Below, in pieces: positions 19,281-64,000 of a stretch of DNA of 64,000 nt. Made by a program: the position numbers and the translations under genes. The notes under the pieces are model-generated. The model did not search any database. It was not told where the DNA came from and worked only from the letters and a program-made list of their open reading frames with translations. This stretch comes from Candidatus Parcubacteria bacterium (GTDB lineage Bacteria; Patescibacteriota; Minisyncoccia; UBA6257; 2-01-FULL-56-20): NCBI GenBank assembly GCA_027355945.1, contig DAIEHA010000005.1, positions 3,067 to 67,066 on the forward strand. The letters are read 5' to 3'. Numbering within the stretch: the first letter of the stretch is position 1; each line of letters starts with the position of its first letter.

Positions 19281-20450
19281 TCATGCGAGACGCAAGCGGT
19301 CGAGGGCCTTCCGCTTATCCTCGAGGGGAAGCTTCGTCTTCCTCACTGCATCGCCGAGCATCGCGATCGTATGATCGTACGTCCTGCGATCCACGGGATA
19401 CGGCGTCGCATCCTTCCCGCCGTGCGCGAAGCTGTATCGTGCGGGATCCTCATATGAAGGAGCTGCGCCATAGATTATCTCGCCGACAAGCGCGAGCGCG
19501 CGGACGGTCTTCGCACCCACACCCTCGGTCGCAAGGAACTTTTCATAGTTTTCCGGCCGCGCATCGGCCACCTTCGAGAGGATCTTCTCGAGATATTTGC
19601 TCTTTGCGAAGTCCTCATGCACCACGGGATGATACGCGAACTCCCTGGTTTCGAGATTGAGGAGCGTGAGCTGCCGTCCCGGCCGCCCATCGCCACCGAT
19701 CTCGATCTTCGCCATCTGCGATAGTCTTGTTGAATATTTCCTGAGGAGCGTGATGTCCTTCATGAGGGTCGCATACCCCGCGTGCACGAGCTCGGTCGAG
19801 ATCTCACGGGAACGATCGCTCTTTGCTGCGCTCATATCGAGCACAGTCTTCAAGGTGATCGACGAGGATATTCCCGAATGAGGGTCCGATACGAGATCGT
19901 TCACGTCCTCGGAGAACCAATGATAGCGACGGGCGGTCCCCGCCTCGGCATTCATCCCCTGCTGCACGACCGCCCAGGCGCCGTTCCGCGAGAAGAAGAA
20001 TGCATGATGGTAGAGCTGGAATCCGTCCTGTACGAGCGCCGAATCGACTTTCGCGCTCATCTTCGAATTGTAAACCAGCCGTTCGGCCTTCGCCGCGGGA
20101 AGCGAAAGATGCTCGCTCCATTGCACGATCTCATCGGGCGCTTTGCGGGAGGTTTTGCCCTTGCCTCCGGCGATCGCAATGCCGAAATCAGCCTCATGTC
20201 CCCGGATCGCCTCTTTGAGCGCGGCGGTGAGGATGGTGGTGAGCCCGCTTGCGTTCCAGTCGAATGCAAGCACCGTGCCGAGGGACTGGAACCACACGGG
20301 GTCCGCGATGCGCGTTATGAACTCATCGGGACCGTACTCCGCAACGAGCACGTACATCATCTCGCGCCCCAGCTTCACCATGCGCTCGAAAAGCCACGGC
20401 GGGCAATGGCCGCTATCCAAACCGAATGAGGCGATGCCACGCTGGATCAT
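19281..20450 (-). CDS. DUF763-family protein (conserved hypothetical)
   Basis: PPWLFERMVKLGREMMYVL...DPVWFQSLGTVLAFDWNASGLTTILTAALKEAI resembles the archaeal/bacterial DUF763 signature. Assigned from memory. Confidence 0.4.
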   Translation of the reverse strand: MIQRGIASFGLDSGHCPPWLFERMVKLGREMMYVLVAEYGPDEFITRIADPVWFQSLGTVLAFDWNASGLTTILTAALKEAIRGHEADFGIAIAGGKGKTSRKAPDEIVQWSEHLSLPAAKAERLVYNSKMSAKVDSALVQDGFQLYHHAFFFSRNGAWAVVQQGMNAEAGTARRYHWFSEDVNDLVSDPHSGISSSITLKTVLDMSAAKSDRSREISTELVHAGYATLMKDITLLRKYSTRLSQMAKIEIGGDGRPGRQLTLLNLETREFAYHPVVHEDFAKSKYLEKILSKVADARPENYEKFLATEGVGAKTVRALALVGEIIYGAAPSYEDPARYSFAHGGKDATPYPVDRRTYDHTIAMLGDAVRKTKLPLEDKRKALDRLRLA

Positions 20451-20476: not shown

Positions 20477-21712
20477 TCACCGCTCCGAGTCGTACAATGC
20501 TTGTATCTCCGCAGGCGAAAGGACGCGATTGTACAGGCGTACATCCTGGATCGCGCCACTCGTCACGCCGAATGCATCTTCCCCCATTTCCGGCGTCGTC
20601 GTGGGGGTAACCTGCAGCCCCGCCACCGAGCTTGCGCCGCTTGCCACGGGCACGCCATTCAAATAGATTTCGCGCATCCCGCTTGCACCTCCCGCATATA
20701 CGAACGTGAGGTAATACCAAGTCCCCGCCACAGTGACGCCCCCCATAATATCATCGCTATAAAAGCCCATATAAGGAGTTCCGTTCCGTATCGCAAGATG
20801 GAGACATTCATCCGTCGCCATCGTGGTGCAAACGCCGAAAATACCGTTATCTTGTTTTAATAATGACTGGTTCATCCATCCTGCCACGGTGAATGGAGCG
20901 GCATTCACGAATATATTCGTGACGAGCGGCGGGGTTATATAATCCGTGCTCCCATCGAATTCCCCCGCATAATTCTGGTGGAGGCCTGCATTGTAATACG
21001 TACCATTCGCCCCGATCTGGCTCCCCGTCCACGTTCCATTATTCCCGTTCCCCGAAAGATCGAGGGCGACCGTGCCGGTGCCTTCATTGAGCGGCCAATA
21101 CCCTACGAGGCCCTGGGGGTCATAGAGCGCAGAAAGGCCCGGAGTGCCGCCGTTCAGGACCTCCGGGAAAAGGGATATCTCGGGGTTCGCCCCATAGGTT
21201 CCTTTATACTTGCTCGATTCAAGGATTGCCGTGACCTGGAACTGGGTGCCGTTCGTATTATACGCATAAAAAAGGTCCGAGGAGGAGGAATTCACCGGGT
21301 CCACGGGAAGCGACCCAAGAGGACTTCCCGCGTTCATCGTCTTGAAATCGACGGGGATCCATCCTGAGGATGCGATCGTGCGGTATGCGGAAGGAGTACT
21401 GCAGGTCCAGGAACCTGTGCCCAATGACGGCATACCAAGGGAACCGCAGGTGCTTGAACTATTGGGGTCGGGAATGCTCGCATAGGTCTCGGTCGTCGTA
21501 CCGAGGGAGAATGAGGCTGCACCCGTCTGATCCGTGACATACAAGGAAAGGGCGGAGTTCAGGGTTGCCATGTCGGACACCCGGTTCGCATCCCGGCTTT
21601 GCGCAAGCAATTGGGCGGGGTTCAGGACGAGGACCACGACGACCGCGAGGATCGCGATGATCGCGATCACGACGAGAAGCTCGATGAGGGTGAAGGCCCT
21701 GCGGGGATGCAT
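20477..21712 (-). CDS. Type IV pilin-like protein with C-terminal LamG/concanavalin-A-like lectin domain (paralog 1)
   Basis: Prepilin N-terminal motif RRAFTLIELLVVIAIIAILAVVVV (cleavage/methylation type). C-terminus ...GDEYFKG-like LamG ending in VRLYNRVLSPAEIQALY. Confidence 0.75.
   Translation of the reverse strand: MHPRRAFTLIELLVVIAIIAILAVVVVLVLNPAQLLAQSRDANRVSDMATLNSALSLYVTDQTGAASFSLGTTTETYASIPDPNSSSTCGSLGMPSLGTGSWTCSTPSAYRTIASSGWIPVDFKTMNAGSPLGSLPVDPVNSSSSDLFYAYNTNGTQFQVTAILESSKYKGTYGANPEISLFPEVLNGGTPGLSALYDPQGLVGYWPLNEGTGTVALDLSGNGNNGTWTGSQIGANGTYYNAGLHQNYAGEFDGSTDYITPPLVTNIFVNAAPFTVAGWMNQSLLKQDNGIFGVCTTMATDECLHLAIRNGTPYMGFYSDDIMGGVTVAGTWYYLTFVYAGGASGMREIYLNGVPVASGASSVAGLQVTPTTTPEMGEDAFGVTSGAIQDVRLYNRVLSPAEIQALYDSER
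21540..21712. repeat. Conserved 5' pilin cassette, copy 1 of 3 (near-identical DNA across three paralogs)
   Basis: ggcggggttcaggacgag..gatcgcgatgatcgcgatcacgacgagaagctcgatgagggtgaaggccct is shared with 22795-22965 and 37455-37628. Confidence 0.8.
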
Positions 21713-21771
21713 GGATTAATGATACCAGATACGAGGAACGCCTGGAAAAATGCGGGAGGATCTCCTCTCCC

Positions 21772-22965
21772 TTATTTCTCGGCGTTATAGAGCGCCATGA
21801 TCTCCGCGGGAGAGAGAACACGGCTATAGACACTCGCATCTTGGATAAGGCCCGTGAAATTCTGCCCCGGCGCATTGGCATAGCCGATCTGCAGATTGAC
21901 GGACTGATTTGATATCGTAAAATTCGTCGTCATCGAGAGAACGCCGTCCACATAGCAAAGCGTCCCATTCGTCACGCCGCTCATGAAACTGCAGGCAACG
22001 AAATGCCATTTGCCGTCGGCAAGATTGATGCCACTGCTGCGCCATCCTCCGCCACTCCAATCGTATATGCTGAAAATATTGCCATCAAGGAACATTGCAT
22101 ACGCGTTTTGTTTTGCAATAATGCCGGCGACGGAGCTCGCCCCCGCATTGGAAGTCTTTATCCATGCGGCCATGGTGCCGTTTGAGAGCTGCACATCGGC
22201 CGCATTCCCTACATCGACATAATCGGTCGCCGTGGCATTGAACGTCCCCGCCCATGCCTGGTTCAGACCGGGAGAATAATAACCGGAAGTTCCCGTAGGG
22301 GTGCCGTACCATGTTCCGGTGTTCCCGTTCCCTGACTGATCGAACGCCGTGGTGCTCGTCCCTTCGTCGAGAGACCATGATCCCACCGGTCCCGCACCGG
22401 CCGCGGGTCCCTGGACATCGATACCGCTGCCGAGGGATCCGGATACGATATTCTGATACTTCTGCGATTCCATCCTCGCAAGGATCTCGAAGGGGGTCCC
22501 TAGAGATTCGTACATATAATAGAGGCCGGAGGAGGAGGAATTCACGGGATCGAGGGGAAGGGAGCCAAAGGGAGACCCCGAAGAGATATTCTTGAAATCG
22601 ATAGGGATCCATCCCGTGCCGTTCGCACTCCGGGACGCCGTACTGCTCACGCAGGAGAATCCCGCAGGCAGTCCGATGTTCGCACAAGTGCTCGTCGTAT
22701 CGGGAAGGGAAACATAGACGAGGGAAGAAGTCCCGAGGAAAAAGCTCGAGGCACCCGATTGATCGGTAGTATAGAGATTGATGGCGCTCGCGAGCGTCGC
22801 CATATCGGACATCCGGTTCGCATCCCGGCTTTGGGCAAGAAGCTGGGCGGGGTTCAGGACGAGCACCACGACGACTGCGAGGATCGCGATGATCGCGATC
22901 ACGACGAGAAGCTCGATGAGGGTGAAGGCCCTGCGGGGGTACGAAGGGTTCCGTGATATCATCAT
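21772..22965 (-). CDS. Type IV pilin-like protein with C-terminal LamG-like domain (paralog 2)
   Basis: Same N-terminal prepilin segment. C-terminus ends VYSRVLSPAEIMALYNAEK. It lies in tandem with paralog 1. Confidence 0.75.
   Translation of the reverse strand: MMISRNPSYPRRAFTLIELLVVIAIIAILAVVVVLVLNPAQLLAQSRDANRMSDMATLASAINLYTTDQSGASSFFLGTSSLVYVSLPDTTSTCANIGLPAGFSCVSSTASRSANGTGWIPIDFKNISSGSPFGSLPLDPVNSSSSGLYYMYESLGTPFEILARMESQKYQNIVSGSLGSGIDVQGPAAGAGPVGSWSLDEGTSTTAFDQSGNGNTGTWYGTPTGTSGYYSPGLNQAWAGTFNATATDYVDVGNAADVQLSNGTMAAWIKTSNAGASSVAGIIAKQNAYAMFLDGNIFSIYDWSGGGWRSSGINLADGKWHFVACSFMSGVTNGTLCYVDGVLSMTTNFTISNQSVNLQIGYANAPGQNFTGLIQDASVYSRVLSPAEIMALYNAEK
22795..22965. repeat. Conserved 5' pilin cassette, copy 2 of 3
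   Basis: See 21540-21712. Confidence 0.8.
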
Positions 22966-31921: not shown

Positions 31922-33646
31922 CTACTGCGTCACCGTTCTCGCACTTCCTCCCGCGAGCGACGGCTCATTCGGCAGCGCGGTCGTCACGGGGTCGGTCGTG
32001 ATGGAGAACGATCCCCCGGTCCAGGCATCGTTTGCGGCGAGGGTTGCCTTGCCGAGAAGGGTCACATCGCTGCCTACCTGGTTCACTGCGGGGATATTGC
32101 TGACGGTGAACTGGGCCTCCACGGGAGCATCGGTGATGCCCGTCGTCGCCGGGATGAACGGGATTGTCCAGGTGACGAGGCCGGTGCCCGGATCGTATAC
32201 GGGCACCGATGCGGTCCCCGTGCTTGATGCGGCGCCGATGAACGACGTCCCGGACTGGAGATATGCCGATACGGTGACGCTCGAGGCATCCGTCGCATAA
32301 TTCGTGATCTTCCAGTCGATGCCGTACTGCGATCCCTGATTCACCTTCGGCGGATACGGTCCGGAAAGCCAGTGTCCTTCCGAGACGAACGCCATCTGGC
32401 CCGCGATCTTGTTCGATATCCTCACCACGGAGACCGTGCTCGATCCCGATGCACCTGGTATGACCGTGGGCGATTCTATCCTTCCCGTGACGGATATCGA
32501 ATAATCCTTGTCGCTTGGAAGCCGGATCGGGAAGGATGAAAGCGTCTTGATGTTGAACGATACCGATCCCGTTTGCCCCGGCGCAAGCGATGCGAGCGCG
32601 GGAGCGTTCGCGGCATACCAGGTGATCGTATTCGTCCGCGAATCGAACGCGCCCGACGTCTCGAGCGATCCGAAATCATACATGCGCCCGGAGAGCGCCG
32701 CAGCGATCTTCACGCTCGAAAGCGTCACGGCGGAATTGTTCGTATACGTGAGCGTATAGCTCAGGCTGTCACCGACCTTCGAAACATATTCGCTGCTGCC
32801 ATTCACGCTCAAGGAAAGCGCAAGCGGAGAAGGTACGAGGGTGAAGTTCACCGTCTGCGCATTCGCCGCATACTGCCGCCCATCGAGCGCGGTATAGGCG
32901 GTCCCTTGGAACTGGTACTGGGCCTGCGACGGCCCCACGATCGCGCCCGTGACAACGAAGGAACCTCCCTGTCCCGGGGCGAGCGTACCGACATCCCACG
33001 TACCCGAGGAGAGCCCCGCCACGGTGCCCGTCGCCACCGGAATGCTGCTTGTTGCGAATGTATATGCAGGAGGATATCCAAGTACGATGCGCGCATCCTG
33101 GATAGGCTGCCCTCCGTTGTTCGCATAGGTCACCGCGACCGGGAAGCTCTGTCCACTCACGATGTTCGTCGGCGCAGAATAGCCGAGACTGAATGTCGAG
33201 GGCCCCGGCGTGATGCTCGTGGCCTGATCGGATTCATAGGTCGTCGAAGGGGTCTCCGGGGTGCTGTAGAGAAGCTTGGCGGAGATGGCATACATCTGGG
33301 AAGGGGGGCCCGTCACAATGACCGTCGAACTCTGCGACGCGACCGCACCGGAAGCGATGTCCCCAAGGGAATATTCCTGCACCTGGGTCGAGGGACCGTT
33401 CCCCACGAACTCGATGCCTTGCGGCAGCTGTACGGCCACGACGGCACCCGAAAGGTCCGTCCTCGAATCGTTCGCGGCGCCGAGCGAAAGTGTGAACGGC
33501 ACGCCGACCACCACGCCCGGAGGCGGTGTGATCGTGAATGTCGTCGCCGGCTGGGACGGAGGCTTCAGATAGGCCACGAGAGCGACCGCGACAACCCCTA
33601 TGACCGCGATGCCGATCGCAAAAAGCAAAAGACCCCACCTGCTCAT
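31922..33646 (-). CDS. Large membrane-anchored cell-surface protein with DUF11-like (conserved repeat) Ig-like domains
   Basis: TM anchor MSRWGLLLFAIGIAVIGVVAVALVAY, then about 570 aa of Thr/Ser/Gly-rich beta-repeats (..LSYTLTYTNNSAVTLSSVKIAAAL..). The ORF could extend to 33859, giving a cytoplasmic N-tail. Confidence 0.5.
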   Translation of the reverse strand: MSRWGLLLFAIGIAVIGVVAVALVAYLKPPSQPATTFTITPPPGVVVGVPFTLSLGAANDSRTDLSGAVVAVQLPQGIEFVGNGPSTQVQEYSLGDIASGAVASQSSTVIVTGPPSQMYAISAKLLYSTPETPSTTYESDQATSITPGPSTFSLGYSAPTNIVSGQSFPVAVTYANNGGQPIQDARIVLGYPPAYTFATSSIPVATGTVAGLSSGTWDVGTLAPGQGGSFVVTGAIVGPSQAQYQFQGTAYTALDGRQYAANAQTVNFTLVPSPLALSLSVNGSSEYVSKVGDSLSYTLTYTNNSAVTLSSVKIAAALSGRMYDFGSLETSGAFDSRTNTITWYAANAPALASLAPGQTGSVSFNIKTLSSFPIRLPSDKDYSISVTGRIESPTVIPGASGSSTVSVVRISNKIAGQMAFVSEGHWLSGPYPPKVNQGSQYGIDWKITNYATDASSVTVSAYLQSGTSFIGAASSTGTASVPVYDPGTGLVTWTIPFIPATTGITDAPVEAQFTVSNIPAVNQVGSDVTLLGKATLAANDAWTGGSFSITTDPVTTALPNEPSLAGGSARTVTQ

Positions 33647-33758
33647 GAATGAACGGCGGTGCGGCGGGCGGATCGTAAGCGTCTCATGCCTCGGTTCCGA
33701 TGGATCCTCCCCTTTCGGTGCGTCAGGTCCGGCGCCTTCGCGCGGATCCGCCCCCGAT

Positions 33759-34388
33759 TCAGATGCCTGCGTCCTCGCTTCGGTCCTGGATCGGGCCGTT
33801 CGGGGCAAATTCGGATTTTCCTTGCTCGTCCATATTCCGTTCGGATTGTAAGGGGACATGTAAGGATATTACCGCATTTTGCCTCATTATTGAAGGGAGT
33901 TTGCGCACGCAGGACGCGCAGAAGAAATCCTGCCGTGAAATATAAAAATATGCCCCTGGCCGGATCCCACATGCGCCGCATACGGCATCCTCCGGATCCC
34001 AGCCGAGCACCGCAAGCGCGGCATGCCACGAAAAGCGCCCTTCGATGACCATACGCCAAAGTTCCGGTTCGGGCTGGCCATCCGGAAGCATCATTGCGAG
34101 ACGATCGAGCGCCGTAAACGGAAGGCCTGCGTTCCGCTCCTTCAACGCATCGATGATCTGAGTTCCGTGGACCTCCACGAAACGAACCTTGAGCAGCGTT
34201 CCCGGTTCAAGGTGAGGCGCGAGTTTCGAGGTTATCTTCCGCGAGCTCTTCGTCCTCCCCGCCATCTTACCGAAGCGTTCCGTAAAAAGTACGTAGCGGC
34301 CATCGCTATCGCCCTGGGGATATTTGCGGAGCGAAACCGCTGCGGTCACGTATTCCTGCATACGTGGCCATTGTAGCATATAATGCAT
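33759..34388 (-). CDS. recO: DNA repair protein RecO (short form with C-terminal Cys4 zinc finger)
   Basis: N-terminal OB-fold-like sequence and C-terminal CGACG...CASC cysteine pairs. Confidence 0.55.
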   Translation of the reverse strand: MHYMLQWPRMQEYVTAAVSLRKYPQGDSDGRYVLFTERFGKMAGRTKSSRKITSKLAPHLEPGTLLKVRFVEVHGTQIIDALKERNAGLPFTALDRLAMMLPDGQPEPELWRMVIEGRFSWHAALAVLGWDPEDAVCGACGIRPGAYFYISRQDFFCASCVRKLPSIMRQNAVISLHVPLQSERNMDEQGKSEFAPNGPIQDRSEDAGI

Positions 34389-36419: not shown

Positions 36420-37628
36420 TCATTTGAAGGCCGCGATCGCGCCGGCGAGATTGGCGTCTCCCGGAACCGTCCATTGGGGACTGTTCGCCGCCGTGCTTGT
36501 CGCAATGAGATATGCCACGCCGCCATCCATGTCATTCCCATCATGGAGGATGTCCGTGATCGTGAATCCGCCGGTGATCGCGGAGGTCGATGCCGCGGAA
36601 CCGGCGCTTGCATATGCCGCAATAAGCAAGGTTCCCGCCTGCGATGGCGTGACGGTTCCCGGAACTATCGACCCCGTCGACGCAATGCCGCCCTGATCGC
36701 TTCCCGCCGCGAGCGGATCGCTCGTGCTCACCACCCCGGAGAACGCGTCCACGGAGATCCCCTCGTACACCTGCGGGCTGCAGTTGAACGTATCGCTCGC
36801 CCCCGTAAGGGCGTTATATGCATAAAAGAACTGGATCCAGCCGTAGGTGTTCGTTCCGGAGCCATATGTGGTCAATGCATGCCAGGTATTGCCTCCGCTG
36901 TCCGTGACCAGCGTGGAGGTAGGGGCATAGTAATAGCAGGCGACGATAAGGAAATCTGCGCCAAGGGTGTTCGCGGTCACCGTGGGCGTGCTCAGATTGC
37001 TGCCGTGGCTTACGAGGGCTATGGGCGCCAGGCTGCCGGGCGCCATGGAATAATCGACGGGCAAAAGCGTCGTCGCAGTCCCCTGTTCATATAAATTGGC
37101 GTATTGCCCCCCATCCCCCGCGGCGATCGAGGCGTATTTCTGCGACTCCATGCTTGCGGTGAGCTCATACCTCAATCCATTCGTCGCATACGTATAATAG
37201 AGACCCGAACTCGTCGTATTGACGGGGTCCACGGGAAGCGATCCAAAGGGACTTCCTGATGAGATATTGCGGAAATCGAGCAGTAACCATCCGGAACCGC
37301 CTATACCGCGATATCCCGCGCTCCCGCTGCACGAGTAGGCATAATTCGCAGGAAGGGCGATGAGGCCGAGATCTCCGCAGGTACTGCTTGCCGAGGGAAG
37401 GTCCGTGTAGATGACCGATGAGGTTCCGAGACCTCCTGCTGAGATATCCGTCTGATAGATGCCTATTGCCGAATTCAATGTCGCAAGATCGGATACCCGG
37501 TTCGCATCCCGTGATTGCGCAAGCAATTGGGCGGGATTCAGGACGAGGACCACGACGACTGCGAGGATCGCGATGATCGCGATCACGACGAGAAGCTCGA
37601 TGAGGGTGAAGGCCCTACGAGAGTGCAT
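36420..37628 (-). CDS. Type IV pilin-like protein with C-terminal LamG-like/jelly-roll domain (paralog 3)
   Basis: MHSRRAFTLIELLVVIAIIAILAVVVVLVLNPAQLLAQSRDANRVSD N-terminus. This is a third copy of the conserved 5' cassette. Confidence 0.75.
   Translation of the reverse strand: MHSRRAFTLIELLVVIAIIAILAVVVVLVLNPAQLLAQSRDANRVSDLATLNSAIGIYQTDISAGGLGTSSVIYTDLPSASSTCGDLGLIALPANYAYSCSGSAGYRGIGGSGWLLLDFRNISSGSPFGSLPVDPVNTTSSGLYYTYATNGLRYELTASMESQKYASIAAGDGGQYANLYEQGTATTLLPVDYSMAPGSLAPIALVSHGSNLSTPTVTANTLGADFLIVACYYYAPTSTLVTDSGGNTWHALTTYGSGTNTYGWIQFFYAYNALTGASDTFNCSPQVYEGISVDAFSGVVSTSDPLAAGSDQGGIASTGSIVPGTVTPSQAGTLLIAAYASAGSAASTSAITGGFTITDILHDGNDMDGGVAYLIATSTAANSPQWTVPGDANLAGAIAAFK
37455..37628. repeat. 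Conserved 5' pilin cassette, copy 3 of 3
   Basis: See 21540-21712. Confidence 0.8.
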
Positions 37629-37718
37629 GGTCTCATTATACCAGACACAGGGTTCCCCCTTTCCGAAGAATTTTGAAACGGATCCCTTGGAGGCATCGCC
37701 TCCTCACAGCCTTTCTTG

Positions 37719-37802
37719 TGCGTCGGGTAGGATTCGAACCTACGTAGCCCAATGGGCGACAGATTTACAGTCTGTTGCGATTGACCGCTCCGCCACCGAC
37801 GC
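37719..37802 (-). tRNA. tRNA-Tyr (anticodon GTA), long variable arm
   Basis: The reverse complement folds as a cloverleaf: acceptor GCGTCGG/CCGACGC, anticodon stem ACAGA/TCTGT with loop CTGTAAA, long variable arm, and a GGTTCGAATCC T-arm. Confidence 0.8.
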
Positions 37803-48946: not shown

Positions 48947-51757
48947 TTACGGAAGCACGGGCATCGGGATGTCGAGCGACGGGCACTGGAGCATATTGAT
49001 CAGGCGCTGCGTCGTTTTATACACGTATCCCGTTGCGGCATTCTCATTCGGGAGGCCATAGGCAACCCATGGCGCAAGGATCTCCGTCGAGTACTTCGTC
49101 TGCAACTGCCTCACGGCCGCCTCGGATCTCGGTCCGTAATATCCGGTGAGAGGGATATTGAGACCCAGCTCCGCATTGAGGAATGCCTGGAGCTTCTTCA
49201 CTTCCGCCGGATCGTTCTGCGCCCCTCTCTGCCACATCGGAGCGATATAGCTCGAAAGATAATAGCCGCAGCTCGTGCTCGCACCAAGGACCTCGCCCTG
49301 CTCCGCAGGAAGCGCCGTCCCCGTTGACGATGGCATTCCCGGGGACACGACTTCTGTCGTTGTCGTGCCAAGCACTATGCCCGCGCCGAACCCGCCTCCG
49401 CCTCCCGCACCACCGGACGAGAATGGATTACCGCCACCGGCAGCAACGCTCACTACGGGGCCCGTGACGCCTCCTCCCGCCGTCCCGGCACTCCGCACTG
49501 CAATGCCTACCGATGCCGCGTTATCGAGTGGCGTGGGATCGATGAAACTGCCGAGCGTACTCGAGACGCTCACGCCGTTCATCAAGGTCCTTCCCTCCTG
49601 CCCGCCCCCAACCGTCATAGCGACGCTCATCGTGGCGGTCGCATGGGGGTCGAGCATCCCGATATCCCATTCGATGCCTCCGTTCACAAGCGATATCGTT
49701 CCTTGGGAGGATGTGGCCGCATTATAGCCGATGCCCTCATCCCAGAAATCTTTCGCGACCACGAAGGTCCCTTGGGCGCTGCCGTTGTTCACGACCTCTA
49801 TCGAATAGGTCACCGTGCCGCCTACGGATGGATCCGCGCGATCGACCATCTTTCTCACTGCGAAGTCCGGTGCGCCCATCGCCCCGCCCGCAACCGTCAC
49901 CGTGGTGCTCGCAACGTCATTCGAGGGATTTGGATCGATGCCCTCGCGCAGGTCCACCGAAGCGCGCACCGTGTTCACGATGGTCGTGGAAGGCTCTGCG
50001 GAAGGATCCACAAGGACCTCCATATCGAGATATGCCGTGGAGCTCGCGAGGAGACCTCCGATCGTCCATATCCCCGTGGAGCTCGCGTACGATCCTGCCG
50101 AGGTCGTCACTCCCACGAGGGAGATCGCGTCCGGCAGCGTATCAGCAGCGATCACTCCGTTCGCCGCATCGGGGCCGAGATTGGCCACTGTGATGCGGTA
50201 ATGGAAGGTCCCGCCCGCCGTGACCGTTGTGGCATCCGCCTCCTTTGCCACAGAAATGTCCGAGGAAGGCGACGGCAGCTGCGCATCGAACGATGCCGTC
50301 ACCGCGGTCGGTGCGGCGATCGCAAAGGAGCACGAGGTCGAGGTGCTCCCGTCGCATACATCACCGCTCCATCCCGTGAATGCGGAGGCATCGCGGGGCG
50401 TTGCCGTGAGCGTCACCATGGATCCCGTCACGAAATTATCCGTACAGGTTCCCGATGTGCATGCATCGATCCCCGGAGGATCGCTCGATACGCTTCCGTT
50501 CCCCGTTCCCGCGATCGTCACGTCGAGCATACTGTCCCCCGGCACGGGCCTCTCATTGAACACCGCGATCACGGTGCTTGCCGTCGTCACGGAATCGATC
50601 ACGAACGCGCACGAGGTCGAGGTCGAGGCCGCACAAGGGCCGGCGCTCCACGCGATGAAACTCGCATCGGCTGCCGGTGACGCCATGAGCGTCTCGATGG
50701 TTCCGATGCGGAACGGATAGGCGCAGGTCGAAGCGCCCGGATCGGCCGAATCACAATGAATGGTCCCCGATGCATCGGAGATCACCCCGTTCCCCGTACC
50801 TCCTGCAGCCGATACCGATAGCGCATACGTCCGTATCCCGAACGCCGCACTCACTTCCGCGTCCTCCGAAAGCACAAGCGTGCATGCCGAAGATGTCCCC
50901 GACGATGCGCACGCGCCTCCCCAGCCCTCGAAGGTCGATGTGGGCGCGTCAGGCGCTGCCGTCAACACCACCGTCGCACCATCCGAGAAATGGGCGTCGC
51001 AAATCGATCCCTCCGATCCGCAGGATATCCCCGGAGGATCGCTCGTGACCACCCCCGTCCCTTCGCCCGTCGTGCTCACCGTGAGCGTGTTCCGGGCGCC
51101 GTGCACGAACCACGCCGTGATCGCATGATCGGCGGTCACGTCATCGAAGGCGTAGGAATCCCCCGCAGGGACCGGGATCCCGTCCACCGTAAGGGCGTTC
51201 AGCACCTCTCCGTTCCCGGGAGTGATCGTGAATGTCTGCGTGCCGTGATATGCCACCGTGGTCGTGCCGAGCGGCAGAATGGCGCCCTCGCCGTTCACCG
51301 ACGCCACGATCCTCGGATCCACCGTCACGCTCGTCGTGGCAGCAGCATATTGAAGATTGTCCGGACTCACCTCGCCGTGATACACGAGTGCGGTAATCTC
51401 ATAGTTTCCCGGAGCGGCGTACGCATGCGACGCCGACCACTCAGCGGAAAATGCCTTGGGAGATGCCGTCGAGGATACGATCGCGAAATCCGCAAGCGGG
51501 ATCGTACTGCTTCCATCCCCCCACCCCGTGACTGCCGCATGCACAGCCCTCAGGGACCCCATATAGGGATTCGCGCCCGCGCTCCCCGTGAGGTCCAGGG
51601 TGCGGGACGATTCGTCGAACGATGCCGTCGTGATGTCTATGGAATAGCTCACGGGCACCCCTCCTTCTTCCGCCAAAACGGAAATAGAAGGCAGGGCGAT
51701 GCTCCCCACGGACATCGTCCCCCATGCCAATAGTTCCAACGTGATATTTTTTTTCAT
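48947..51757 (-). CDS. Very large (936 aa) secreted surface protein: InlB-B-like Cys repeats + DUF11-like domains + C-terminal peptidoglycan-binding-like domain
   Basis: Signal peptide. Repeated GTG.VTSDPPGI.CGS..C...F..G..VTLTA.P.A.S.F.GWGGAC units. A DUF11-like ISVAKEADATTVTAGGTFHYRITVANLGPD stretch. C-terminus ...AAVRQLQTKYSTEILAPW resembles a PG_binding_1 domain. Confidence 0.6.
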   Translation of the reverse strand: MKKNITLELLAWGTMSVGSIALPSISVLAEEGGVPVSYSIDITTASFDESSRTLDLTGSAGANPYMGSLRAVHAAVTGWGDGSSTIPLADFAIVSSTASPKAFSAEWSASHAYAAPGNYEITALVYHGEVSPDNLQYAAATTSVTVDPRIVASVNGEGAILPLGTTTVAYHGTQTFTITPGNGEVLNALTVDGIPVPAGDSYAFDDVTADHAITAWFVHGARNTLTVSTTGEGTGVVTSDPPGISCGSEGSICDAHFSDGATVVLTAAPDAPTSTFEGWGGACASSGTSSACTLVLSEDAEVSAAFGIRTYALSVSAAGGTGNGVISDASGTIHCDSADPGASTCAYPFRIGTIETLMASPAADASFIAWSAGPCAASTSTSCAFVIDSVTTASTVIAVFNERPVPGDSMLDVTIAGTGNGSVSSDPPGIDACTSGTCTDNFVTGSMVTLTATPRDASAFTGWSGDVCDGSTSTSCSFAIAAPTAVTASFDAQLPSPSSDISVAKEADATTVTAGGTFHYRITVANLGPDAANGVIAADTLPDAISLVGVTTSAGSYASSTGIWTIGGLLASSTAYLDMEVLVDPSAEPSTTIVNTVRASVDLREGIDPNPSNDVASTTVTVAGGAMGAPDFAVRKMVDRADPSVGGTVTYSIEVVNNGSAQGTFVVAKDFWDEGIGYNAATSSQGTISLVNGGIEWDIGMLDPHATATMSVAMTVGGGQEGRTLMNGVSVSSTLGSFIDPTPLDNAASVGIAVRSAGTAGGGVTGPVVSVAAGGGNPFSSGGAGGGGGFGAGIVLGTTTTEVVSPGMPSSTGTALPAEQGEVLGASTSCGYYLSSYIAPMWQRGAQNDPAEVKKLQAFLNAELGLNIPLTGYYGPRSEAAVRQLQTKYSTEILAPWVAYGLPNENAATGYVYKTTQRLINMLQCPSLDIPMPVLP

Positions 51758-63580: not shown

Positions 63581-63695
63581 GATGTCGGCACATCCTACTT
63601 TCCCCATAAAATGAGTATCATCGGATCGAGGCGCTTTCACTTCTCTGTTCGGAATGGGAAGAGGTGGGGGCACGCCCGAATAAAGCACCGACATC
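63581..63695 (-). rRNA. rrf: 5S ribosomal RNA
   Basis: The reverse complement reads GATGTCGGTGC...CCCATTCCGAACAGAGAAGTGAAAGCGCC...GAAAGTAGGATGTGCCGACATC, with a terminal helix and conserved 5S motifs. Confidence 0.75.

Positions 63696-63837: not shown

Positions 63838-64000
<163 letters not shown>

Follow-up and report, generated by a model that had tools for sequence, protein, structure and literature searches.

Modular type IV pilin genes dispersed in a Candidatus Parcubacteria genome share a 5' block that is probably kept near-identical by gene conversion

A stretch of 64,000 nucleotides from a Candidatus Parcubacteria bacterium (GenBank assembly GCA_027355945.1, contig DAIEHA010000005.1, positions 3,067 to 67,066 of the forward strand), which was analysed as a whole and is here called the window, contains three genes, A, B and C, that encode large type IV pilin-like proteins and begin with an almost identical block of sequence, the cassette. 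A preliminary description of this DNA had placed three open reading frames of about 400 amino acids here; all three lie on the minus strand and encode 411, 397 and 402 amino acids. The genes and their C-terminal domains (heads) are as follows.

20477-21712, minus strand: gene A, modular type IV pilin with class III signal peptide, pilin module and LamG head (open reading frame, 411 amino acids)
21772-22965, minus strand: gene B, modular type IV pilin with LamG head and a longer leader, MMISRNPSYP (open reading frame, 397 amino acids)
36420-37628, minus strand: gene C, modular type IV pilin with a non-LamG head (open reading frame, 402 amino acids)
20501-20956, minus strand: LamG/ConA-like head of A (PF13385, Laminin_G_3, residues 253-404, E = 2e-16)
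21799-22230, minus strand: LamG/ConA-like head of B (PF13385, Laminin_G_3, residues 246-389, E = 2e-21)
36423-37040, minus strand: head of C, an uncharacterised all-β domain of about 200 amino acids (profile searches and AlphaFold2 model)

The N-termini of A, B and C exceed the curated cut-offs of both prepilin families (PF07963, 32.7-33.7 bits against 21.2; TIGR02532, 30 bits against 16.3). Pfam's N_methyl is matched at residues 1-26 of A and 11-33 of B, and is the only match in C. Phe1 and Glu5 of the mature protein are followed by a hydrophobic α1-N helix of about 20 residues, FTLIELLVVIAIIAILAVVVVLVL in all copies; a full-length AlphaFold2 model of C, built from 12 sequences, places a helix over residues 9-59 with low confidence. 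That model (predicted local distance difference test, pLDDT, 50.7) was set aside in favour of a domain-only model from 71 sequences. The canonical prepilin N-terminus claimed in the preliminary description stands but for one residue, considered below, while its claim of a LamG C-terminus in all three genes holds for A and B and fails for C.

Homologs of gene A number at least 761 and come chiefly from Candidatus Paceibacterota. Hundreds of homologs overwhelmingly have the N_methyl plus Laminin_G_3 architecture, and their sources name them 'prepilin-type N-terminal cleavage/methylation domain-containing protein' or 'LamG-like jellyroll fold domain-containing protein' (Candidatus Paceibacterota, Pacebacteria). 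The N-terminal pilin module of about 190 amino acids also occurs in fusions with further domains (PPC, PF14099 and PF03781), and on its own it forms a 180-amino-acid pilin in a metagenome-assembled genome (MAG) of Saccharibacteria. There, at L027 6009-7400, two such stalk-only pilins lie in tandem with the pilin module of the candidate phyla radiation (CPR), LNPAQLL...GWIPV...PVDPVN; they are about 100% identical over their whole length, which points to a recent whole-gene duplication.

The LamG family profile, compared to the PDB, matches 4qvs (2.7e-19) and 5hon (6e-15), and also neurexin, the pentraxins and sialidase lectin domains. The head of C matched no Pfam family, either by itself or across 71 members of its own family, no NCBIfam family and no PDB sequence; against the LamG heads of A and B the hhalign probability is 0.07%, that is, there is no profile similarity. 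The domain-only model of this head is confident (pLDDT 93.9, predicted template-modelling score 0.91) and has 13 β-strands, and a Foldseek search of the PDB with it gave no convincing match (template-modelling score at most 0.30). The family to which it belongs comprises 2,746 representative clusters at E<=1e-3, mostly stand-alone proteins of about 230 amino acids or tandem arrays of up to 6 copies, outside pilins. Each protein carries an extra domain foreign to type IV pilus biology, PF13385 in A and B and a mostly non-pilin head family in C, and we conclude that A, B and C are predicted type IV pilin-like proteins with a modular pilin design.

The cassette encodes a stretch of 41 amino acids, RRAFTLIELLVVIAIIAILAVVVVLVLNPAQLLAQSRDANR, that is identical in A, B and C. 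Its 123 nucleotides are 92-95% identical (pairwise differences of 6, 6 and 10) and contain a core of about 56 nucleotides at 100% identity in all three genes; beyond the cassette, identity drops to 30-60%, except in an 80-nucleotide island. This agrees with the preliminary description, which had noted a near-identical 5' block of about 130 nucleotides with the rest diverged.

21581-21703, minus strand: cassette of A, codons 4-44 (RRAF..DANR), 123 nucleotides
22813-22935, minus strand: cassette of B, codons 11-51 (by alignment)
37497-37619, minus strand: cassette of C, codons 4-44, overwritten by A/B-type sequence (by ortholog/paralog comparison)
21249-21328, 22499-22578 and 37177-37256, minus strand: second, weaker island in the pilin module (GSPxGSLPVDPVN...), repeat family D2, 69-74% identity

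An unbiased repeat search of the 64 kb returned only two direct-repeat families, both from these three genes: a 5' block of 203 nucleotides and the 80-nucleotide island at 69-74% identity, which sits in gene bodies whose synonymous sites are about 55% diverged overall. A degenerate pattern for the pilin N-terminus has exactly 3 sites in the window (A, B and C), against 0 expected. Within the cassette 34-37 of 41 codons are identical between copies, compared to 17.7 expected from the codon usage of the window (z = 5.4-6.3). On these counts, the identity of the cassette is not attributable to chance or to codon constraint.

A sister lineage in the same metagenomes allows paralogs to be compared with orthologs. 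At the syntenic locus an M17 peptidase gene is followed by A2 (P0002, 82% amino acid identity to A) and then by a DUF763 gene; C2 (P0122, 79%), the ortholog of C, lies beside the same tRNA-Tyr gene (locus L021). The DUF763 protein of the window (19281-20450, minus strand; E = 1e-120) is a conserved downstream neighbour of A in both lineages. Gene B is missing from the sister, with a relic of its 3' end ('...PLYDHALSPAEIVALYNEEK*') kept in the spacer between the M17 peptidase gene and A. Two features of these loci are listed here.

L017 9824-10000: relic 3' end of a B-like LamG pilin, in frame '...GSIFDVPLYDHALSPAEIVALYNEEK*', in the sister's spacer between the M17 peptidase gene and the A ortholog
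37718-37802, minus strand: tRNA-Tyr gene directly upstream of C, where homology with the ortholog locus ends on the 5' side

The relic indicates that B is ancestral and that the sister lineage has deleted most of it. Together with bodies that are only 35-43% identical in amino acid sequence among A, B and C, it indicates that the duplicates are old.

As a measure of nucleotide divergence we took, among codons for identical amino acids, the share that differ, in the cassette and in the gene body. For paralogs within this genome the shares are 5/38 and 69/128 (A-B), 3/38 and 56/101 (A-C), and 6/38 and 72/112 (B-C), so that 8-16% of synonymous codons differ in the cassette and 54-64% in the bodies (Fisher p <= 5e-6). 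The orthologs A and A2, which have the same cassette peptide over 39 residues (AFTLIELL...DANR), differ at 14/38 codons in the cassette (0.37) and 109/274 in the body (0.40); the cassette is as diverged as the body, which shows no extra constraint on it at the nucleotide level. The preliminary description had reasoned that the identity goes beyond what codon constraint on the transmembrane helix would produce, and the 37% divergence of orthologs with the same peptide bears this out. The sister's own paralogs have not been homogenised: A2 and C2 differ at 19/35 codons in the cassette (54%) and 68/115 in the body, and over 114 nucleotides of cassette at 27 positions and 3 amino acids. C and C2 differ at 21/35 codons in the cassette and 112/265 in the body, so that the cassette of C is more diverged from its ortholog than the body is.

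Counted over the 114-nucleotide cassette, A, B and C differ from one another at 5-9 positions, from A2 at 15-21 and from C2 at 28-31; for C the figures are 5/114 to its paralog A and 31/114 to its ortholog. Amino acid identity of the bodies has the opposite order (82% and 79% for the orthologs against 35-43% for the paralogs). Paralogs that are closer than orthologs inside a tract, with the reverse outside it, are the signature of gene conversion. Between the C and C2 loci homology is lost from tRNA-Tyr to codon 6, which places the promoter inside the tract replaced in C. We conclude from the two sets of comparisons that the cassette is homogenised by gene conversion that is recent and lineage-specific, as the preliminary description had proposed.

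The preliminary description had also suggested that the family may be larger than three, and it is. Independent short-read contigs nearly identical to the window (99.9-100%) end inside the cassette of A, at 21566, 21655, 21552 and 21683, and contigs from the opposite side start at 21706, 21692 and 21581; of these, the MEGAHIT contigs (k=141) have their ends at 21566 and 21552 and their starts at 21706 and 21692. In sample ERZ27236853 two contigs overlap by exactly 141 nucleotides, the value of k. The other branch of this break leads to a fourth pilin gene, D, which in contigs with the full MurF (P0355) from the same samples follows the gene order mraZ-rsmH-ftsL-PBP-murF-tRNA-Glu.

21552-21706, minus strand: exact 155-nucleotide repeat common to A and to D, which lies outside the window downstream of murF-tRNA-Glu

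Nucleotides 7-161 of the D coding sequence are exactly those of A; the two differ at nucleotide 6 and next at nucleotide 162. The shares of differing codons are 0/38 in the cassette and 47/89 in the body, where amino acid identity is 53%; over the four pairs A-B, A-C, B-C and A-D, Fisher p ranges from 5e-6 to 5e-10. The repeat is longer than k, which accounts for every contig end.

One public MAG contig, L001 (GCA_021834505.1, JAKBDM010000059.1), joins murF-tRNA-Glu to the body of A. Its junction, at about position 981 of the locus, corresponds to window position 21706, from which point it is identical to the window, and contigs from at least 5 other assemblies break where it joins. A real rearrangement was considered and rejected: D sits at the murF locus with the 155-nucleotide run that it has in common with A, and locus L108 shows D's own body there. 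L001 is most likely a mis-joined (chimeric) contig produced via that repeat. Since the repeat breaks short-read assemblies, pilin repertoires of CPR MAGs are likely to be under-counted or mis-joined.

The same samples yield four further copies: E lies between tpi and a dCMP deaminase gene, G and F form a tandem pair downstream of ychF, and H is flanked by ddl and a UvrD-like helicase gene. The heads of E-H are LamG/ConA-like; the sequence of D stops just past a LamG-type start motif. Within the set A-H, copies differ from one another at 0-12 positions of the 114-nucleotide cassette, compared with 15-31 between them and the sister copies. D alone is connected directly to the window genome, by the branch in the assembly graph, and we estimate the family at four or more, and probably eight, dispersed modular type IV pilin genes. 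A scan of species-representative genomes for the exact cassette gave 0 matches; a protein-pattern scan of the same genomes was dominated by the FTLIELLV/VIAIIAILA motif of the Planctomycetes-Verrucomicrobia-Chlamydiae (PVC) phyla, and its best full-length relative is only 41% identical. C, D and G each lie directly downstream of a tRNA gene: tRNA-Tyr for C; tRNA-Glu for D (L108, about 1960-2035); and, for G, one upstream of position 1503 of L024 that is recognised only by a tRNA-like 3' end.

The homogenised unit extends from about -25 to codon 45-54 and so takes in a predicted -10 box. Three regulatory features were recognised in the window.

21719-21748, minus strand: promoter-like site of A, TTTCCA-18-TG-TATCAT (consensus scan)
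37635-37643, minus strand: extended -10-like box of C (TGGTATAAT), 6 nucleotides upstream of the ATG and inside the converted tract (read from the sequence)
21754-21771, minus strand: terminator-like hairpin directly after the stop codon of B (consensus match only)

The extended -10 box of A ends 6 nucleotides before the ATG and there is no Shine-Dalgarno sequence; the same box stands 6-7 nucleotides before the ATG in C, D, E, G and H (loci including L108, L022, L024 and L110), and is missing from the C ortholog locus, L021. Given this spacing, and the lack of a Shine-Dalgarno sequence, the mRNAs of A, C, D, E, G and H are probably leaderless. In the window, the stretches concerned are 21713-21748 for A and 37629-37643 for C, both on the minus strand. 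F starts 10 nucleotides after G and has a GGAG (Shine-Dalgarno). The promoter-like site of A and the hairpin after B make these two genes look like separate transcription units.

The cassettes are mosaics. In a four-gamete test of copies A-G, which assumes that E-G come from the same genome, 85/136 informative site pairs show all four gametes, and a 3-nucleotide AGC/TCA Ser switch common to C and G cuts across a CTCGTC/CTTGTG polymorphism common to F and G. G and H have an identical promoter and 9-nucleotide leader duplication (ATGCATCCC TCG CATCCC..., giving MHPSHPRRAF) and an exact run of 104 nucleotides, despite different loci and stalks (the ~190-amino-acid pilin part).

L024 1503-1530 and L110 4868-4895: leader sites shared by G and H

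The heads, too, have been exchanged. Over about 650 nucleotides E and G share 93-100% identity, which falls to about 30% from the conserved start of the LamG domain onward; F, H and P0147 have one stalk and three unrelated heads; and P0230 carries the head of F on a diverged stalk. A conserved 3' end, '...SPAEI.ALYNAEK', was tested for homogenisation and showed none, and the idea of a cassette with two anchors was rejected. These patterns suggest that heads reassort among near-identical stalks as a slow evolutionary process; a switching mechanism is not supported. The repertoire of conserved N-termini and variable C-termini envisaged in the preliminary description therefore survives as an evolutionary pattern of stalk/head mosaics, and does not survive as a demonstrated mechanism of switching.

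Taken together, we think it highly likely that A, B and C are members of a dispersed modular pilin gene family whose 5' block is kept near-identical by repeated gene conversion among paralogs. Each protein consists of a class III signal peptide and α1-N helix (Ala|FTLIE, Glu5), a pilin stalk of about 190 amino acids and a variable head, and the near-identical block runs from about the -10 box to codon ~45-54, roughly 130-180 nucleotides. Strong selection at the protein level on the processing and assembly helix would preserve exact matches (29-155 nucleotides) between copies; these matches would seed short-tract, non-reciprocal homologous recombination, presumably RecA-dependent, and repetition of such events would maintain the block. 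A conversion tract would end where downstream divergence abolishes homology. The expected outcome is concerted evolution of a module of promoter, signal and α1-N helix while the heads diverge, and longer exchanges that break off where the conserved LamG domain begins would put different heads on near-identical stalks. The window holds a RecO gene (Pfam RecO_N), which we count in favour of conversion.

Several observations weigh against this account or parts of it. Residue -1 of the cleavage site is Ala in A, B and C (RRA|FTLIE), and the canonical Gly is not present.

21695-21697, 22927-22929 and 37611-37613: Ala codons preceding Phe1 in genes A, B and C

Ala at this position may be tolerated in prepilins, and among the retrieved family homologs it is the majority state (137 Ala, 72 Gly, 4 Ser). 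Pfam scans and tables reveal no pilus-assembly genes in the 64-kb window, in line with the preliminary description, which had found none of the PilB/PilC/PilM-Q type; assembly of the products into a filament is accordingly an assumption. E-H are linked to the window genome only by co-occurrence in samples and by similarity of their cassettes, and the comparison with C2 rests on a 2-kb contig, L021, assigned to the sister lineage by its 79% identity and by co-occurrence (sample ERZ27233572 also holds A2). Finally, near-identical strains from at least 6 samples give no sign of ongoing cassette exchange. The preliminary description had looked to strains for further variation, and just 1 of 9 between-sample single-nucleotide polymorphisms (SNPs) lies in a cassette: a private synonymous GTG->GTA change at window 22900, in the cassette of B, in sample ERZ27236847. 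It matches no paralog, and the SNPs are not clustered in cassettes.

Alternatively, the genes may be of recent origin, built by fusing one segment of promoter, signal and stalk to different heads through duplication and domain shuffling. Stalks that are 93-100% identical under unrelated heads (E/G and F/H/P0147) are what such a history would produce, and the pilin module is known fused to many other domains. Yet A and C have syntenic orthologs in the sister lineage with diverged cassettes, and so both predate the split, as the B relic indicates for B; the stalks of A, B and C are highly diverged beyond the cassette; and the E-G and F-H pairs are less alike in the cassette (81-86%) than in the stalk that follows it, which implies that the cassettes were overwritten separately. 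Recent origin is thus an improbable explanation for the shared block.

Purifying selection at the nucleotide level, acting through codon bias, leaderless initiation, targeting by the signal recognition particle or RNA structure, could in principle preserve the block with no recombination at all. The peptide is invariant and the genome is biased in its third-position GC content, which makes 17.7/41 codons match by chance, and in probably leaderless mRNAs the 5' coding sequence could matter. The codon identity observed is nevertheless far above that expectation (z > 5), and the same peptide in the orthologs tolerates synonymous change at the rate of the rest of the gene (37%). The sister's paralogs differ at 54%. 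Same-peptide pilin paralogs elsewhere differ at 50-70% of synonymous codons, and no Rfam element is present in the cassette. This explanation is already largely refuted, and we regard it as very unlikely.

Equally hard to sustain is a programmed, high-frequency system in which the cassette serves as switch point, whether by conversion of the pilE/pilS type or by inversion of the Piv/shufflon type. The layout of constant N-terminus and variable C-terminus resembles that of such systems, and was what led the preliminary description to a comparison with antigenic variation; contig L001, which joins the upstream region of D to the body of A, could be taken for a product of switching. However, L001 is better explained as a mis-join, since murF-tRNA-Glu is followed by D's own body in L108. 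Where the preliminary description proposed looking for promoterless C-terminal cassettes, the window has no partial, truncated or silent copies. Each of the eight copies is full-length and has its own start codon, preceded in A, C, D, E, G and H by a -10-like box and in F by a Shine-Dalgarno sequence. The window contains 0 inverted repeats of >=35 nucleotides and, in Pfam scans, no recombinase; A, B and C lie on the same strand, with essential genes between B and C; and the strains compared above carry no cassette variants.

An artefact of assembly or binning, in which repeats were collapsed or polished to a consensus, might be suspected from the way short-read assemblers break at the cassette and from at least one probably chimeric contig (L001), but is scarcely credible given that copy-specific cassettes and flanks recur at 99.9-100% identity in MEGAHIT and Logan assemblies made independently from at least 6 samples and that 5-9 of 114 cassette positions still distinguish the copies.

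Concerted evolution of paralogs is a textbook mechanism, and the combination of pilin and LamG domain has already been catalogued: PF13385 is among the most frequent grafts on modular pilins, with CPR representatives cited (Raynaud et al. 2021, PMC8179133). In Streptococcus sanguinis glycans are bound by the ConA-like lectin module of PilC, a protein that modelling places at the pilus tip (PMC9934059). In TM7x the pilins PilX1 and PilX2 have lectin-like C-terminal domains, PilX2 is needed for efficient host binding, sugars inhibit binding, and the minor pilins are proposed to lie at the tip (PMC11623550). By analogy with these proteins, the LamG/ConA-like heads are presumably glycan-binding, and A, B and E-H are probably adhesins displayed on a pilus, perhaps at its tip.

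PilC (pilin, Ig and ConA-like lectin modules) resembles A and B in joining a class III signal peptide and pilin module to a C-terminal ConA-like/LamG domain. It has no detectable sequence similarity to the present proteins beyond the N-terminal helix. The stalk here is a long (about 190 amino acids) CPR-specific pilin module, and PilC is encoded by one copy inside the pil locus, whereas here at least 4-8 dispersed copies occupy loci of their own away from machinery genes. TM7x PilX1 and PilX2, compared by feature description, are likewise large CPR pilins with β-jelly-roll/lectin-like domains; they differ in belonging to Saccharibacteria rather than Paceibacterota and in having their genes inside pilus loci, and for TM7x no family of multiple copies with concerted 5' ends is reported.

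Concerted evolution and gene conversion among genes for surface proteins are known from Neisseria opa and from babA/babB and other Hop paralogs of Helicobacter pylori. As here, several full-length, presumably individually expressed paralogs have homogenised terminal segments and divergent ligand-binding regions that are occasionally swapped; unlike those cases, only the 5' end is homogenised here, the families and organisms are different, and the sequences that were examined showed no obvious phase-variable repeats. The pilS copies of Neisseria are silent, have neither promoter nor 5' constant region, and supply variable segments to one expression locus. Like pilE/pilS, the present genes are pilin genes that undergo gene conversion and combine an N-terminal region that is constant with a C-terminal one that varies, but here it is the constant region that is converted, all copies are complete, and no silent ones turned up. 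The window likewise has none of the inverted repeats (>=35 nucleotides) or recombinase genes (Pfam scans) of shufflons and invertible pilin loci, and A, B and C share one strand.

A literature search on concerted evolution of pilin 5' ends found nothing specific. A parallel is nonetheless provided by seven tandem DUF1559-like pseudopilin genes of a Planctomycetaceae genome (L091, CP051247, 5118-11400), which are 91-98% identical over the first ~120 nucleotides, 30-50% in the body and 76-91% at the 3' end. They resemble A, B and C in having a homogenised 5' end and a diverged body, and differ in being tandem rather than dispersed, in having homogenised 3' ends, in the C-terminal domain and in phylum; homogenisation of 5' ends thus recurs in pilin-like multigene families. 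It is not automatic, since among the loci returned by the protein-pattern scan, which served as a baseline, pilin paralogs with nearly the same peptide usually show differences at 50-70% of synonymous codons (for example 25/37, 23/36 and 26/36).

To our knowledge, every member of the CPR/Patescibacteria in culture lives attached to host cells. Host binding in Saccharibacteria requires type IV pili whose minor pilins are lectin-like (PMC11623550). Four to eight or more large pilin genes with different LamG-type heads in a Paceibacterota genome would therefore make a plausible repertoire for recognition of hosts or glycans. A uniform processing and assembly end, combined with occasional movement of heads, offers a testable picture in which the repertoire stays compatible with one pilus machine while specificities diversify. 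More speculatively, and on balance doubtfully, the cassette and the start of the LamG domain may act as recombination handles by which a genome-reduced episymbiont population reassorts lectin-type heads among stalks and expression sites. Were this so, recombination would diversify the host range or glycan specificity of CPR pili in the manner of head swapping in phage tail fibres, and homogenisation of the 5' end would be selected to keep heads compatible with one assembly machine rather than being a neutral by-product.

Other large predicted surface proteins were also noted. Two with DUF11 repeats lie on the minus strand of the window at 31922-33859 and 48947-51757, the latter a protein of 936 amino acids that also has InlB B-repeat-like and PG_binding_1 domains, and a related locus (L110, 284-2977) encodes an 897-amino-acid protein with Laminin_G_3 and PG_binding_1. 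The edge of the window is occupied by a 5S rRNA gene (63583-63692) and the 3' end of a 23S rRNA gene (63842-64000, minus strand).

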